Below, in pieces: positions 3,788 through 10,708 of a stretch of 64,000 nucleotides of DNA. Under the pieces are notes generated by a model that was not told the origin of the DNA, searched no databases, and was given only the letters and a program-made list of their open reading frames with translations. Source of the DNA: Kiloniellales bacterium (GTDB taxonomy: Bacteria > Pseudomonadota > Alphaproteobacteria > Kiloniellales > JAKSBE01); the NCBI GenBank assembly GCA_030066685.1, contig JASJBF010000007.1, forward strand, positions 7,061 through 71,060, given 5' to 3'. Position numbers and translations under genes: made by a program. How positions within the stretch are numbered: the first letter of the stretch is position 1; each line of letters starts with the position of its first letter.

Positions 3788-4183
3788 CTATCCCAACATC
3801 CGATGCAGGCGCGCGTCCTTGGTCTTGAAATGCTGGGTGAACCAGCTCTGCAGGTGCTCTGACAGGACCTCGTCGTAGTCGGCGTAGGCACCGCGCGCTT
3901 GATTGTCCATGATGTCTCGGATGCCGTCGAGCAGCGCCTCGTGGTCCGCCTTGTGCTCAGCGTACTGGTCGTAGCCGCGTTCGCGCATGATCTTTTCCTC
4001 CAGGGCGAAGTGCGCAGAGATCTGGGCGTGGATCTGGCCAAGGAAATCCGCGACCGCTTCTTCGTCCGCCCCGCCCTGGAGCCGACCGTGGAGATCGTTC
4101 AACAAGGCGATCAGGGCTTCGTGCTCGTGATCGACCGAGGCGATCCCGGTGCGGAACTCGTCGCGCCATTCGACCAGGGTCAT
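3788..4183 (-). CDS. bacteriohemerythrin (hemerythrin-like metal-binding protein)
   Basis: 131 aa from MTLVEWRDEFRTGIASVDHEHEALIALLNDL. His/Glu ligands also in HFALEEKIM and HKADHEALL. The ATG overlaps the stop of the upstream gene (ATGA at 4180-4183). Confidence 0.85.
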   Translation of the reverse strand: MTLVEWRDEFRTGIASVDHEHEALIALLNDLHGRLQGGADEEAVADFLGQIHAQISAHFALEEKIMRERGYDQYAEHKADHEALLDGIRDIMDNQARGAYADYDEVLSEHLQSWFTQHFKTKDARLHRMLG

Positions 4184-4755
4184 CGCCGGCCTCCGTCCGC
4201 GGACGGATCGGCGTCGGCCAGCCTCCGCGGCTCCGGGCCTGCCGCCGCCTCGGTGAAAAGAAAGCCGCCCGCCTCGGCCCGGAACTCGATGACCAGGCGC
4301 CGGCGCGGCGCGATGTCGACGGTCTCCTCGCGGCTGTAGTCGAAGCCCTCTGCGCGGTCGCTGTCGCGCAGGCGGGCGACCAGGCTGTGCCGGCCGCTGG
4401 GCACGACGAAGTTCGCGTAGAGCTGGGAGGGTCCGTCGCCGAAGAGTCCGCTCGGCGGGACCGCCTCGCCGACCAGCAGCGCGCCGTCGAGCTCGATCTC
4501 GACCACGACCGCTTGGCGGCCGCGATCCTCGCAGATCATCGGCTTGCGCTGCGACGGCGGCAGCGCGGCGATCTCCTCGGCGGTCAGGCGCCGGCACGCG
4601 CCAAGACGCTCGCCGCTGTGGGCGATGTTCAAGGTCAGCTGGCCCTGGTCTTCGGGAAAACGCTCGTAAACCGGGCTGTCGGCAAAGAACCCGAGCAGCA
4701 CCGCGATCAGGCCATAGACCAGCGCCTGGCCGAGGTATCGCAGCAGCCTAGGCAT
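4180..4755 (-). CDS. hypothetical N-terminally anchored protein
   Basis: 191 aa from MPRLLRYLGQALVYGLIAVLLGFF (one TM), then a beta-rich soluble domain. The start overlaps the upstream stop (ATGCCTAG). Confidence 0.55.
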   Translation of the reverse strand: MPRLLRYLGQALVYGLIAVLLGFFADSPVYERFPEDQGQLTLNIAHSGERLGACRRLTAEEIAALPPSQRKPMICEDRGRQAVVVEIELDGALLVGEAVPPSGLFGDGPSQLYANFVVPSGRHSLVARLRDSDRAEGFDYSREETVDIAPRRRLVIEFRAEAGGFLFTEAAAGPEPRRLADADPSADGGRR

Positions 4756-6334
4756 CGATCTTCTCGCCCTGGCGTCCGGCATTCGGCCCGAGCGGCGGGC
4801 CGGAAGGCGGCCCGGGACTCGGCTTTGCCGGCGCCGGCAGGTCGGCCAGCGCGGCCTGGAAGTCCTCGATCGCGCGCTCCAGGCGACGGCGGTCGCCGCT
4901 GCCGGCCCAGCAGACCGAGAGGCGCTCGCGCGGGACCCGGCGGCGCAGGTAGGGGTCGCGGGTGCCGGCCAGACGCGCCGCCATCCACTCGATGCCGAAA
5001 CGGTTGTGACACTCGCCGTCGCGACAGCCGGTGATGACGACTCCGCCGGCGAGATCCCGGCTCAGCACGTAGTCGATGAAGGAGGGCGGCAGAGCCGCCG
5101 TGCAGGGCAGCGAGACCGCCGCAATCTCGGCCCGCCGGAGCCGCTCCACCGCGACGGCGTGGTCGCAGCCGAAGACCAGGACCAGGCGCTGCCCCGAAGT
5201 CGACGCCGCGGCGGCCTCGACCCGGTCGCGCAGGGCGCGCAGGCTGCGCTGCGGCAGGTCGATGCCCGGGACCAGAGCGCTGGCCCGACGGAAGGGCGTG
5301 CTGGTCGGGCAGGCGCCAGCGCAGATGCCGCAGGCGACGCAGAGATCGGCGTCGACGACGGCCTCCTGCTCGAACGGCAGGCCGTCGCTGCGCGGCCGCA
5401 TCTGTATGGCGTTATAGGGACAGTCATCGGCGCAGCGCGCGCAGCCGTTGCAGTTCGCCAGGTCGACCACGGCCGCGACTTCGGCCGTGCGGCGCAGCGG
5501 CGGCAGCCAGGGCAGCATCACCAGCATCAGCCCCAGGACCCCGAGAAAGACCCAGACCGCACCCTTGGAGAAGATGTCCATCAGGGGATAGGCGACCAGG
5601 TAGTACCAATCGAGCTTGAGCACCGAGGGCACCGTCGACAGGTCCGCGGGGCCGTGGCTCACCGCCGGCTTCACGAAGGCGAGCGCCAGCAGCATGACGA
5701 AGGTGCCGATGGCGAGGCCGCGCCCCGGATTGATCTGCGGCTTGGTGACCCTCTGCAGATGGATCCAGAGGACCAGGAGCAGAAGCAGCGGAACCACGAT
5801 GTGGATGAAGGTCATCAGGGTGAAGAAACGGTCGTCCAGCGAGGCCGGCGTCAGGAAATTGCGCGCGATCGGCTCGCCGAAGATCGCCAGCCAGTCCAGC
5901 CATTCGGTGGTGGCGATGGCGATGTACTGGGCGAGCTGGTCCCAGACCAGCCAGTAGCCCGAGATCCCGGCGATGAAGACCAGCGCGAGGACCGGCACCC
6001 CGGTCACCCAGGTGAACCAGCGGGGACCGCGATAGCGGCCGAGGGCGAACTCCCGCAGCATGTGAACGACCATCATCAGCACCATGCCGTCAGAGGCGTA
6101 GCGGTGCAGGCTGCGCATCACGCCGCCAAGGTACCACTGCTCGCTGGTGAGGTAGGCGATGGAGTCGTAGGCCTCTGTGGTGCCGGTGTCGAAGAAGATG
6201 TAGAGGTAGATGCCGCTGACCGCGACCACCCAGAAATAGAAAAAGCCGAGGGCGCCGAGCTGATAGAGCGGGTTCCACCGTGGACCGAAGAGGCCGTCCA
6301 GCCAGCCTTCGACGGTCTGGAAGCCCGCCCTCAT
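4748..6334 (-). CDS. fusion protein: di-heme cytochrome b (bc-type N-terminal domain) + 2x[4Fe-4S] ferredoxin + MvhD/FlpD-like Cys-rich domain
   Basis: 528 aa from MRAGFQTVEGW. His pairs in RSLHRYASDGMVLMMVVHMLREF and FIHIVVPLLLLLVLWIHL. CNGCARCADDCP and CVACGICAGACP. C-terminal FGCDHA...LPCTAAL...ITGCRDGECHNRFG. Confidence 0.7.
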   Translation of the reverse strand: MRAGFQTVEGWLDGLFGPRWNPLYQLGALGFFYFWVVAVSGIYLYIFFDTGTTEAYDSIAYLTSEQWYLGGVMRSLHRYASDGMVLMMVVHMLREFALGRYRGPRWFTWVTGVPVLALVFIAGISGYWLVWDQLAQYIAIATTEWLDWLAIFGEPIARNFLTPASLDDRFFTLMTFIHIVVPLLLLLVLWIHLQRVTKPQINPGRGLAIGTFVMLLALAFVKPAVSHGPADLSTVPSVLKLDWYYLVAYPLMDIFSKGAVWVFLGVLGLMLVMLPWLPPLRRTAEVAAVVDLANCNGCARCADDCPYNAIQMRPRSDGLPFEQEAVVDADLCVACGICAGACPTSTPFRRASALVPGIDLPQRSLRALRDRVEAAAASTSGQRLVLVFGCDHAVAVERLRRAEIAAVSLPCTAALPPSFIDYVLSRDLAGGVVITGCRDGECHNRFGIEWMAARLAGTRDPYLRRRVPRERLSVCWAGSGDRRRLERAIEDFQAALADLPAPAKPSPGPPSGPPLGPNAGRQGEKIDA

Positions 6335-6351
6335 CCAGCCCTGAAGGAAGC

Positions 6352-7209
6352 TCAAGACCGGGACTCCGGGAGGCCGGAGGGGGTCGTTGACCGGCTGCGC
6401 CACCAGGCACGCAGCAGCAGGACCGCCATGCCGAGCAGGCTGGCGGCCCCGACGGTGAAGGCAATGAAGATGGAATAGTCGAAGCGGTAGCGCTGGCTGT
6501 TCGGGTCGTAGTAGGTGCAGAACAGGCGGATCCGGTTCACCAAGTTGGTGACCGCGCCGGCCTCGGCCCGCCGCCCGAAGACCAGCTCCATCAGCGGCTC
6601 CACCAGCGCCGGGGCCTTGAAGGTCGCGCCGTAGACCTGCCGGTAGATGCGGCCCTCGGCATCGATGATCGTGGTCTGCGCCAGGTGATCGAAGCCGCGC
6701 GGCGAGGGGAAGTAGATGAAGCCCAGGTTCTCGACCAGGCGCTCGAGGGTTTCGGCGTCGCCGCTGAGGAAGGCCCAGTTCGCCAGGTCCACGCCCTGGC
6801 CGTGCGCGAAGGCGCGCATCCGCGCCGGCGTGTCGCCGCGGGTGTCGAAGCCGATGGTCACCACCGAGAAGCTGTCTGCGCCGAGGCTGTCCCGCGCCAC
6901 CGCCACCGCGTCCTGCAGGGTCTGGACGACGATCGGGCAGGACTCGGCGCAGGCGGTGAAGACCAGGTTCACGACCAGGGGCTTGCCCCGATAGGCGGCC
7001 AGCTGGACCGGCCGGCGCCGGGTGTCGAGGAAGTCGTAGTCGCCCAGGTCGCGACCGATGGCCGCTTGGCTGTAGGCGATCGCCGCCTCCGGGTCGAAGG
7101 CGACGGCGGGATCCGGCGCCGCCTCGGCCGGGCCCGCGAGGATCCAGAGCGAAGCCAGGGCGCACACGCGGGCTTGCCTGGCCAGAGCGTGCATGGCCCG
7201 GGCGCGCAT
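6352..7209 (-). CDS. SCO1/SenC-family copper chaperone/thiol-disulfide protein with C-terminal TM anchor
   Basis: 285 aa. Signal sequence, thioredoxin fold with LVFTACAESCP (CxxxC), and a C-terminal TM (IFIAFTVGAASLLGMAVLLL). Confidence 0.75.
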   Translation of the reverse strand: MRARAMHALARQARVCALASLWILAGPAEAAPDPAVAFDPEAAIAYSQAAIGRDLGDYDFLDTRRRPVQLAAYRGKPLVVNLVFTACAESCPIVVQTLQDAVAVARDSLGADSFSVVTIGFDTRGDTPARMRAFAHGQGVDLANWAFLSGDAETLERLVENLGFIYFPSPRGFDHLAQTTIIDAEGRIYRQVYGATFKAPALVEPLMELVFGRRAEAGAVTNLVNRIRLFCTYYDPNSQRYRFDYSIFIAFTVGAASLLGMAVLLLRAWWRSRSTTPSGLPESRS

Positions 7210-10383: not shown

Positions 10384-10398
10384 GGCTGTCCGCTCCCG

Positions 10399-10593
10399 CT
10401 ATTCCGCGATGGGAATCTGGATCACTTCCATGATTCCCCAGATCAGATAGAAGACCGTCGGCATCACGACGCCGAGGAACAGCAAGAGGAAGGGGTTGTC
10501 CAAGAGGCGCTGCATGGCCGGAACGCGGCCGCTTGGCGCCGCGCCCTCCGCCTCTGGCTGGGTCTGACCGGAGTCCGAATCTGATGTCGACAT
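10399..10593 (-). CDS. small single-TM protein, first gene of the oxidase-like operon
   Basis: 64 aa from MSTSDSDSG. Hydrophobic LLDNPFLLLFLGVVMPTVFYLIWGIM. The longer start at 10668 would leave only 27 nt to the FNR box. Confidence 0.5.
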   Translation of the reverse strand: MSTSDSDSGQTQPEAEGAAPSGRVPAMQRLLDNPFLLLFLGVVMPTVFYLIWGIMEVIQIPIAE

Positions 10594-10694
10594 GAGCGTT
10601 CCCCTTGAGGCGAGCGTTTCGCGCGGCCGGAGGTCTTTACAGGCCGCCTCCGACTCCATCGTGCCCAATAGTGTTCGACGCCCTGCGCGCGTCC

Positions 10695-10708
10695 TTGACT
10701 TTCATCAA
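10695..10708. promoter_or_regulatory. FNR/NNR-type box TTGAC-TTTC-ATCAA upstream of the oxidase-like operon
   Basis: 9/10 match, centred about 108 nt upstream of the ATG at 10593 on the minus strand. Confidence 0.7.

Follow-up and report, generated by a model that had tools for sequence, protein, structure and literature searches.

A predicted eNOR operon with conserved accessory genes in a denitrification cluster of a Kiloniellales bacterium

The eNOR family of nitric oxide (NO) reductases includes the "cytochrome a1-like hemoprotein" of Magnetospirillum magnetotacticum, and its characterised member is Rmar_0161 of Rhodothermus marinus DSM 4252. The diagnostic of the family, a Tyr-to-Gln replacement, reportedly goes back to Hemp and Gennis in 2008. 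Here we analyzed a 64-kb stretch of DNA from a Kiloniellales bacterium (assembly GCA_030066685.1, contig JASJBF010000007.1, positions 7,061 to 71,060; hereafter "the window"), which has a high GC content (60-75% in 2-kb windows) and carries a cluster of eight genes on its minus strand, running from 10593 to 3788. Judging from its sequence features, this cluster is very likely an eNOR operon, in which subunits I and II, probably with a 64-aa protein, would form a membrane-bound NO reductase on a ba3 (B-family) scaffold.

Previous work described eNOR as a B-family-derived enzyme that has CuA in one subunit and a proton path resembling the K-channel (Murali et al. 2024, PMC11214002). The purified R. 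marinus eNOR reduced NO at 0.68 per second and did not reduce O2, and heme As was assigned to both heme sites of eNOR (PMC11214002). The same study found eNOR in 547 GTDB genomes, including many strains of Ca. Accumulibacter phosphatis, in whose wastewater-plant transcriptomes it is highly expressed; it also reported expression of an eNOR by Gallionellaceae KS during denitrification, and tied the family to microoxic conditions and heme A synthesis, many eNOR operons having ctaA (PMC11214002). Gln at the Tyr site defines eNOR and sets it apart from oxygen reductases and from other NO reductases (NORs) (Schwartz et al., PMC8756737, section 2.7.1 and Table A4); in that table, eNOR is listed with Q and one proton channel, sNOR with N, and cNOR and qNOR with E. 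The alphaproteobacterial "ba3-a1" subtype was renamed eNOR, and the metagenome-assembled genome (MAG) BS150m-G9 uses it (Degli Esposti et al., PMC8879329). A preprint on Ferrigenium straubiae describes an eNOR operon in which subunits II and I are joined by heme O synthase and sco1 and by a "scaffold protein of unknown function"; the cytochrome b/Fe-S proteins that go with it are termed "rather unusual". eNOR is now routinely counted in metagenomic denitrification surveys.

Active site and relatives of the predicted eNOR

Subunit I (573 aa; 8111..9832, minus strand) matched PF00115 with E = 7e-64, and its best solved relative in a PDB sequence search was the ba3 oxidase of Thermus thermophilus (E = 1e-38). 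In the alignment, the segment G232-H233-P-I-V-Y237 of ba3 faces G240-H241-S-S-Q-Q245 of subunit I, which places Gln245 at the position of the cross-link Tyr237; the GHSSQQ motif, with Gln244 and Gln245, is encoded at 9098-9115 on the minus strand. All six ligand His are in place: H79 (LTAHG), H241 (GHSSQQ), H290/H291 (AHHML) and H395/H397 (PGHFH). We assigned H79 and H397 to the low-spin heme, H395 to the high-spin heme, and H241, H290 and H291 to FeB/CuB. Subunit II (180 aa; 9841..10383, minus strand) has one transmembrane helix and a cupredoxin domain (PF00116, E = 5e-4; CoxB, E = 4e-10) with a full CuA site (H124, C159-N-E-F-C163-G-V-G-H167-H-T-M170). The original prediction, made from the sequence, had described a B-family-like subunit I with six metal-ligand His retained, the replacement of the cross-link Tyr by Gln four residues after the first CuB His, and a full CuA site in subunit II; all three descriptions were borne out.

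To place the protein among its relatives, we scanned one genome per species and found at least 571 encoding loci. The counts out of 80 given throughout refer to the best 80 of these, in which subunit I is 65-85% identical to that of the window. The 80 loci come mostly from proteobacterial MAGs (Alpha-, Beta- and Gammaproteobacteria, plus one Bacteroidota bin), and they include two with names in the literature: MAG BS150m-G9 (locus L019, 77% identity) and Ca. Accumulibacter adjunctus (locus L079, 66% identity). The six His ligands are invariant in 83 of 83 sequences (the window protein, the 80 loci and two distant representatives), as is the QQ pair of the GHxxQQ motif, which in all 80 loci reads GH[S/A/F][S/T]QQ. 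The CuA motif CxExCx3Hx2M is kept in 79/80 loci.

The ba3 K-channel residues S309, T312, T315, S261 and Y248 align with S318, H321, S324, S269 and Y256 of subunit I, and across the 83 sequences these positions show either no change or conservative substitutions. Glu19 of subunit II lies at the cytoplasmic end of the transmembrane helix, at the position of Glu15(II) of ba3, and at least 95% of sequences retain it. The window enzyme has, in these residues, one B-family-like K-channel analogue, and proton conduction through it is predicted. The resemblance to T. thermophilus cytochrome ba3 (PDB 1EHK/1XME) extends to the fold, the six His, the single-helix CuA subunit, the position of the K-type channel and a gene for a small extra single-helix subunit upstream. 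The window enzyme differs from it in Tyr237 to Gln245, in the preceding residues (Pro-Ile-Val in ba3, Ser-Ser-Gln in the window), in two K-channel positions (Thr312 to His321 and Tyr244 to Val252), and in belonging to a family whose enzyme does not reduce O2.

A word-indexed search returned at least 120 clusters at 79-96% identity, labelled cytochrome c oxidase subunit I or "cbb3-type"; the closest named relatives among the matches listed were Kiloniellales MAGs. An exhaustive representative search added only two further full-length Gln-type clusters. One of them (P0121) is 53% identical, has the motif HMSQQ and represents a Deltaproteobacteria/metagenome subclade; the other (P0129) is 41% identical, has GHGTQQ and comes from the haloarchaeon Natrarchaeobius. 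A homologue search seeded with P0121 retrieved the Deltaproteobacteria/metagenome subclade, and no Rhodothermus sequence. In a neighbour-joining tree of 30 sequences, the Gln clade was monophyletic in 193 of 200 bootstraps, and the window protein was placed with the Accumulibacter and haloarchaeal sequences. The sister of the Gln clade is a group with the motif GHxxQY, and both stand apart from ba3 and the other GHP(L/I)VY oxidases. Nesting inside Tyr-bearing B-family oxidases with a compensating Tyr, which the original prediction had named as one of the results that would speak against it, is thus not what we observed. Tyr256 and Tyr280 of subunit I, both invariant and close to the site, were considered as compensating residues and rejected: since they are common to the Tyr-bearing GHxxQY sister clade, they are not replacements for the lost Tyr. 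No Tyr peculiar to the Gln clade turned up elsewhere.

The members of the GHxxQY group (P0131, P0132, P0134 and P0152; ~40% identity) are the nearest Tyr-bearing relatives, and combine the first Gln of the QQ pair with a retained Tyr. The named ones are archaeal, from Hodarchaeales (Asgard; P0132) and Thermoproteota (P0134), and the group looks like a transitional or sister oxygen-reductase group. We also observed a more distant clade (P0182, P0199 and P0204; ~30% identical to the query) that contains a protein from a Dehalococcoidia MAG. In this clade, the first CuB His is retained together with the Tyr at +4 (FH-x-x-H-Y). Tyr replaces both the leading His of the HH pair and the high-spin heme His (in the latter case PGHFH is changed to P-G/A-Y-x-H), which would make for an unusual heme-copper active site.

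The fold of subunit I was modelled with AlphaFold2 from 36 sequences at 79-93% identity, giving a mean predicted local distance difference test (pLDDT) score of 66.5 and a predicted TM-score (pTM) of 0.73; we used the model at the fold level only. Its top Foldseek matches were B-family oxidases (7DEG, ba3), with a TM-score of ~0.74 and 24% identity, ahead of A- and C-family structures, and no cNOR or qNOR structure was among the top 50. Neither a sequence search nor Foldseek found an eNOR structure in the PDB. At the active site, the model is poor.

In public records, the window protein and its relatives go under the names "cbb3-type" or cytochrome c oxidase subunit I; this misannotation is systematic and conceals a NO reductase in many genomes. 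Because of it, denitrification inventories based on genomes would score the nirS-positive host of the window as having no NO reductase. Recognition of eNOR makes the host a likely N2O producer, possibly an energy-conserving one.

The operon, its conservation and its denitrification context

All eight minus-strand genes counted in the original prediction, tightly packed and translationally coupled, were recovered by ORF calling, with starts set by start codons and purine runs resembling ribosome-binding sites, and third-position GC is high in all of them. Intergenic gaps are at most 26 nt; genes overlap at three junctions, two of which (4755/4748 and 4183/4180) are ATGA-type start/stop overlaps, and a consensus scan inside the cluster found no sigma-70-like promoter. 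The first gene (10399..10593) starts at an ATG with a ribosome-binding site and encodes the 64-aa protein, which has one C-terminal transmembrane helix and, by analogy with subunit IIa (cbaD) of ba3, whose position it occupies, is a candidate third subunit. Subunits II and I are followed by heme O synthase (CtaB/CyoE; 7218..8084; TIGR01473, 255 bits against a cutoff of 210) and by a SCO1/SenC-like copper chaperone with a thioredoxin fold, a CAESCP motif and a C-terminal transmembrane helix (6352..7209; PF02630, E = 1e-13). The last three genes encode a fusion of a cytochrome b6-like domain, two [4Fe-4S] domains and an FlpD domain (4748..6334; PF00033, E = 1e-22; PF02662, E = 4e-11; Fer4 domains), a 191-aa protein with an N-terminal transmembrane helix and a conserved domain (4180..4755), and a bacteriohemerythrin of 131 aa (3788..4183; NF033749, 98 bits against a cutoff of 84).

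We surveyed this operon by tblastn of the window proteins against the 80 loci, in which many absences are contig ends. Gene order and strand are identical throughout. The 64-aa protein, directly upstream of subunit II, is kept in 76/80 loci, subunit II in 80/80, ctaB, after subunit I, in 71/80, and SCO in 77/80; the cytochrome b/Fe-S/FlpD fusion is kept in 72/80, the 191-aa protein in 71/80 and the hemerythrin in 61/80. The operon of the P0121 subclade consists of a small ORF, subunits II and I, SCO, a cytochrome b/Fer4/FlpD fusion and UbiA/CtaB; its small ORF, of 36 aa, stands at the position of the 64-aa protein, and the operon adjoins nirS and napA/napD. The cytochrome b/Fe-S/FlpD fusion is the rule in the sampled eNOR loci (72/80 plus the 53%-identical subclade). 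The Ferrigenium eNOR operon matches that of the window in gene content, and its "eNOR scaffold protein" is probably the 191-aa protein. In three loci of the P0121 type (L081-L083) we also noted, at 6844-8337 on the plus strand and directly ahead of the small ORF and the subunit II gene, a gene for a 497-aa protein with a weak COX1 match; this divergent heme-copper-like protein is absent from the window.

In the window, the operon lies within a denitrification cluster. At the window edge, and running past it, is nirS (2..775, minus strand), of which the N-terminal 258 residues of the cytochrome cd1 nitrite reductase are present (PF13442 and PF02239). It is followed by a gene for a NirI/NosR-like membrane Fe-S flavoprotein (887..2989, plus strand), which matched the NosR model with E = 4e-211 and 703 bits, below the cutoff of 1000, and by one for a Crp/Fnr-family regulator (3075..3785, plus strand), convergent with the operon. 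The regulator is NnrR/Dnr-like by its family matches and its E-x2-SR recognition helix, and has no N-terminal Cys cluster. On the other side lies nnrS (11669-12985, minus strand; PF05940, E = 4e-116), after which comes a second, canonical SCO1/SenC gene (10931-11668, minus strand; PF02630, E = 2e-52). The location between nirS/nirI/nnrR and nnrS, as originally proposed, was confirmed by profile matches for all flanking genes. No norCB or qnor had been seen in the window, and our Pfam scan, which covered 48 other ORFs, a part of those in the window, likewise found no second PF00115/COX1 protein and hence no norB or qnor among them. Two further features of this region are the presence of two different SCO-type chaperones in one denitrification cluster, and a 60-aa ORF (10733-10915) between the second SCO1 gene and the operon that is conserved in 0/80 loci.

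The association with denitrification genes extends to other genomes. By tblastn, a Crp/Fnr homologue is found within 10 kb in 26/80 loci and nirS in about 20/80. Unbiased clustering of neighbouring ORFs gave a Crp/Fnr regulator in 22 loci, NirS in 21, NirI/NosR in 16, ApbE in 11 and NnrS in 11, with heme d1 genes also among the clustered neighbours; CtaA lies within 10 kb in only 5/80 loci.

Upstream of the operon there is an FNR/NNR(Dnr)-type palindromic box, TTGATGAAAGTCAA, at 10695..10708 on the minus strand, ~108 nt from the first ATG. The box, called near-consensus in the original prediction, is perfect. Among 75 related loci, 51 have a strict FNR-type box in the 350 nt ahead of the operon, where a background of 0.085 per kb predicts ~3. 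The window holds six copies of the strict pattern TTGAY-N4-RTCAA, where shuffling predicts 0.03, and five of the six are in the first 12 kb, at promoter-like positions: two between the divergent nirS and nirI-like genes (806-819 and 840-853), one before the Crp/Fnr gene, one before the eNOR operon and one exactly at the nnrS/SCO1 junction (11659-11672). The sixth (13716-13729) lies inside a 735-aa ORF and is not at a promoter. The survey indicates that a very stable eight-gene layout, usually with an FNR/NNR box in front, and three conserved accessory genes characterize proteobacterial eNOR operons.

The Crp/Fnr protein is likely the reader of these boxes and their cognate regulator. With the box centred at -41.5, transcription would start near 10660, and ACTATT (10672-10667) would occupy the -10 position. 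This arrangement suggests a class-II-type promoter, activated at the TTGAT-N4-GTCAA box by a Crp/Fnr regulator that responds to NO or O2 and is most probably the NnrR-like protein encoded next to the operon. Induction of the operon would then coincide with that of nirS, the source of the substrate NO.

Assignment to eNOR, alternatives and predicted mechanism

Since it has Gln at the Tyr site, three His at the active site, a CuA subunit, a K-channel analogue and relatives named as eNOR in the literature, the window enzyme is a typical eNOR, a member of an already described family. The original prediction had proposed a candidate non-canonical NO reductase in a denitrification cluster, and had left its family open (eNOR, sNOR, gNOR, nNOR or a further variant). 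Motif, clade, synteny and context argue for such a reductase, and the family question resolves to eNOR, of which three His with Tyr to Gln is the published definition. The window operon also shares with the family the presence of ctaB and sco and a nirS-linked neighbourhood, and we found no defining difference. It differs in having no ctaA, in its pair of low-spin heme ligands, which is His/His where some eNORs have His/Lys, and in its host, which is apparently an anoxygenic phototroph.

The other NO reductases of the superfamily fit the window enzyme less well. cNOR (NorCB) and qNOR share with it the superfamily, the predicted conversion of 2 NO to N2O, the lack of the cross-link Tyr and, in denitrifiers, NnrR/Dnr-type boxes. 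However, they are of C-family descent, their FeB has Glu as its fourth ligand, they lack a conserved proton channel from the cytoplasm, and they possess a cytochrome c subunit or a quinol site where the window enzyme has CuA; the CuA subunit and the B-family scaffold rule them out. sNOR, gNOR, nNOR and bNOR (qCuANOR) are closer, being B-family-derived, without the Tyr and mostly with a cupredoxin subunit. sNOR and bNOR are ruled out because they have Asn at the Tyr site (PMC8756737, Table A4), where the window enzyme has Gln. Similarly, gNOR has Asp for one His and no CuA ligands, and nNOR has a cNOR-like Glu and a His/Met low-spin heme (PMC11214002), whereas the window enzyme has three His, CuA and the H79/H397 pair; both are ruled out. 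A further undescribed NOR-like family, distinct from all of these (eNOR, sNOR, gNOR, nNOR and bNOR), would have in its favour only the uncertainty of the original prediction and the fact that no direct alignment with the R. marinus eNOR was made; the motif, subunits, proton-channel pattern and named relatives all match eNOR, and we regard a new family as exceedingly improbable.

Another possibility is that the enzyme is a bona fide B-family (ba3-type) oxygen reductase for microaerobic respiration. Its best solved relatives are indeed ba3 oxidases, the CuA site, the K-channel analogue and the CtaB and SCO genes would all be expected of such an enzyme, and public annotations name it a cytochrome c oxidase. 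Nevertheless, the cross-link Tyr is absent in 83/83 sequences with no compensating Tyr, the characterised eNOR has no O2 reductase activity, and the operon, preceded by an FNR/NNR box, has nirS, nirI, an nnrR-like gene and nnrS as neighbours. Together, these points make an oxygen reductase very unlikely. An eNOR enzyme with a non-respiratory job, such as the detoxification of NO produced by nirS or by organisms nearby, or the turnover of some other small substrate, with little energy conservation, deserves somewhat more weight. It would be in line with the slow turnover of the R. marinus enzyme (0.68 NO per second), with the hemerythrin and NnrS alongside, both typical of responses to NO stress, and with the authors of PMC8756737, who leave detoxification or another role open. 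On the other hand, the K-channel analogue is conserved, many genomes have the operon closely packed with respiratory nirS and nap genes, and eNOR is expressed in Ca. Accumulibacter phosphatis and in the denitrifying Gallionellaceae KS (PMC11214002). We therefore consider this role unlikely as well, though less so than the other two alternatives.

Several points nevertheless count against the assignment as an eNOR. The tree is a neighbour-joining tree of 30 sequences, as opposed to a maximum-likelihood tree of a curated heme-copper oxidase set, and the pLDDT of the structure model falls below 50 at residues 237-242 and 289-313, that is, at the active site. Our view covers 64 kb of the genome, and a cNOR or qNOR may exist elsewhere. 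The operon has no ctaA, although the ctaB that it does contain is consistent with the heme a-type cofactor of the family. The link to the R. marinus assay runs through the family definition and the naming in the literature rather than through a direct alignment with the R. marinus or Magnetospirillum proteins, and for proteobacterial eNORs, the window protein included, we infer activity, metal and heme type.

Taking the enzyme as an eNOR, we propose the following mechanism. A periplasmic donor such as cytochrome c would reduce the CuA of subunit II, from which electrons would reach the low-spin heme (His79/His397) and then the binuclear site, formed by the high-spin heme (His395) and a non-heme metal on His241, His290 and His291. 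There, 2 NO + 2 e- + 2 H+ would be converted to N2O + H2O. Since only two electrons are needed, the redox-active His-Tyr cofactor would be dispensable, and Gln245 stands in its place. The protons would probably come from the cytoplasm through the K-channel analogue (Glu19(II), Ser318, His321, Ser324, Ser269 and Tyr256), and such cytoplasmic uptake would make NO reduction electrogenic. CtaB would supply heme O, the precursor of the heme a-type cofactor, and the SCO protein would load CuA, while the fusion, the 191-aa protein and the hemerythrin may serve electron input or the maturation of cofactors and metals.

Accessory genes and the wider window

The N-terminal 200 residues of the fusion align to spinach cytochrome b6 (E = 1e-23), with four heme His (77, 91, 178 and 192). 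The region of helix E, the ef loop and helix F has a conserved DW-Y-L-x2-Y-P motif, including a PEWY-like sequence (LDWYY). The C-terminal part has two CxxCxxCxxxCP [4Fe-4S] motifs followed by an FlpD/MvhD-like Cys-rich domain, and under the usual topology of cytochrome b these Fe-S domains would be cytoplasmic. No Rieske or cytochrome c1 partner is encoded in the operon. In the alignment of loci, the 191-aa protein has invariant C54 and C75 and a near-invariant H46 and NMR motif; sequence and profile searches found no relatives of it in Pfam, NCBIfam or PDB. The hemerythrin has intact di-iron ligands, with conserved His, Glu and Asp.

Because the three accessory genes sit among ctaB and sco, a role in maturation is suggested; the cytochrome b/Fe-S architecture of the fusion speaks equally for a role in passing electrons between the quinone pool and a partner in the cytoplasm. 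We tentatively put forward that the fusion, the 191-aa protein and the hemerythrin form a dedicated, uncharacterised module on which eNOR depends, while recognizing that this is rather doubtful. Such a module could feed electrons into eNOR, as a partner linked to quinol or to the cytoplasm. Alternatively, it could serve the maturation of cofactors, for instance through an O2-sparing route to a heme a-type cofactor or the insertion of metal into the binuclear site; a maturation role would explain how eNOR can be produced during denitrification close to anoxia although its operon lacks ctaA. A full-text literature search for "eNOR", "hemerythrin" and "nitric oxide reductase" together returned no paper, and the three genes are concrete targets for studying how eNOR obtains electrons, metal and its heme a-type cofactor at low oxygen. 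We also considered whether the fusion replaces ctaA functionally, which would predict mutual exclusion of the two genes; this was unsupported, with ctaA near only 5/80 operons and one locus (L015) having both.

Outside the denitrification cluster, the 735-aa ORF that contains the sixth strict box (13161-15368, plus strand) is an apparent fusion of a DctA/GltP-type symporter (residues ~22-351) and a periplasmic amino-acid-binding domain (~480-712). The region 16733-29589 contains, on the minus strand, at least ten co-directional ORFs with a strong coding signal (GC3, the GC content at third codon positions, of 0.82-0.89); they had no Pfam or PHROG match except for a peptidoglycan-binding domain in the ORF at 27627-28769.

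The second half of the window (31000-64000), ~20 kb from the denitrification island, is occupied by a photosynthesis gene cluster. It includes genes for PucC (32260-34506), a PpsR-like regulator with PAS and HTH_8 domains (34747-36246), a B12-binding protein (36299-37219), a BchI-like protein (40552-41640), CrtI/CrtB/TspO (44388-47466), a polyprenyl synthase (50065-51027), BchY/Z-like proteins (54131-57354), a reaction-centre L/M subunit (58041-58889) and the reaction-centre cytochrome c (59871-60902). The cluster also encloses a cytochrome P450 gene (38260-40002). Judging from the photosynthesis genes, the host is probably an alphaproteobacterium capable of anoxygenic phototrophy.

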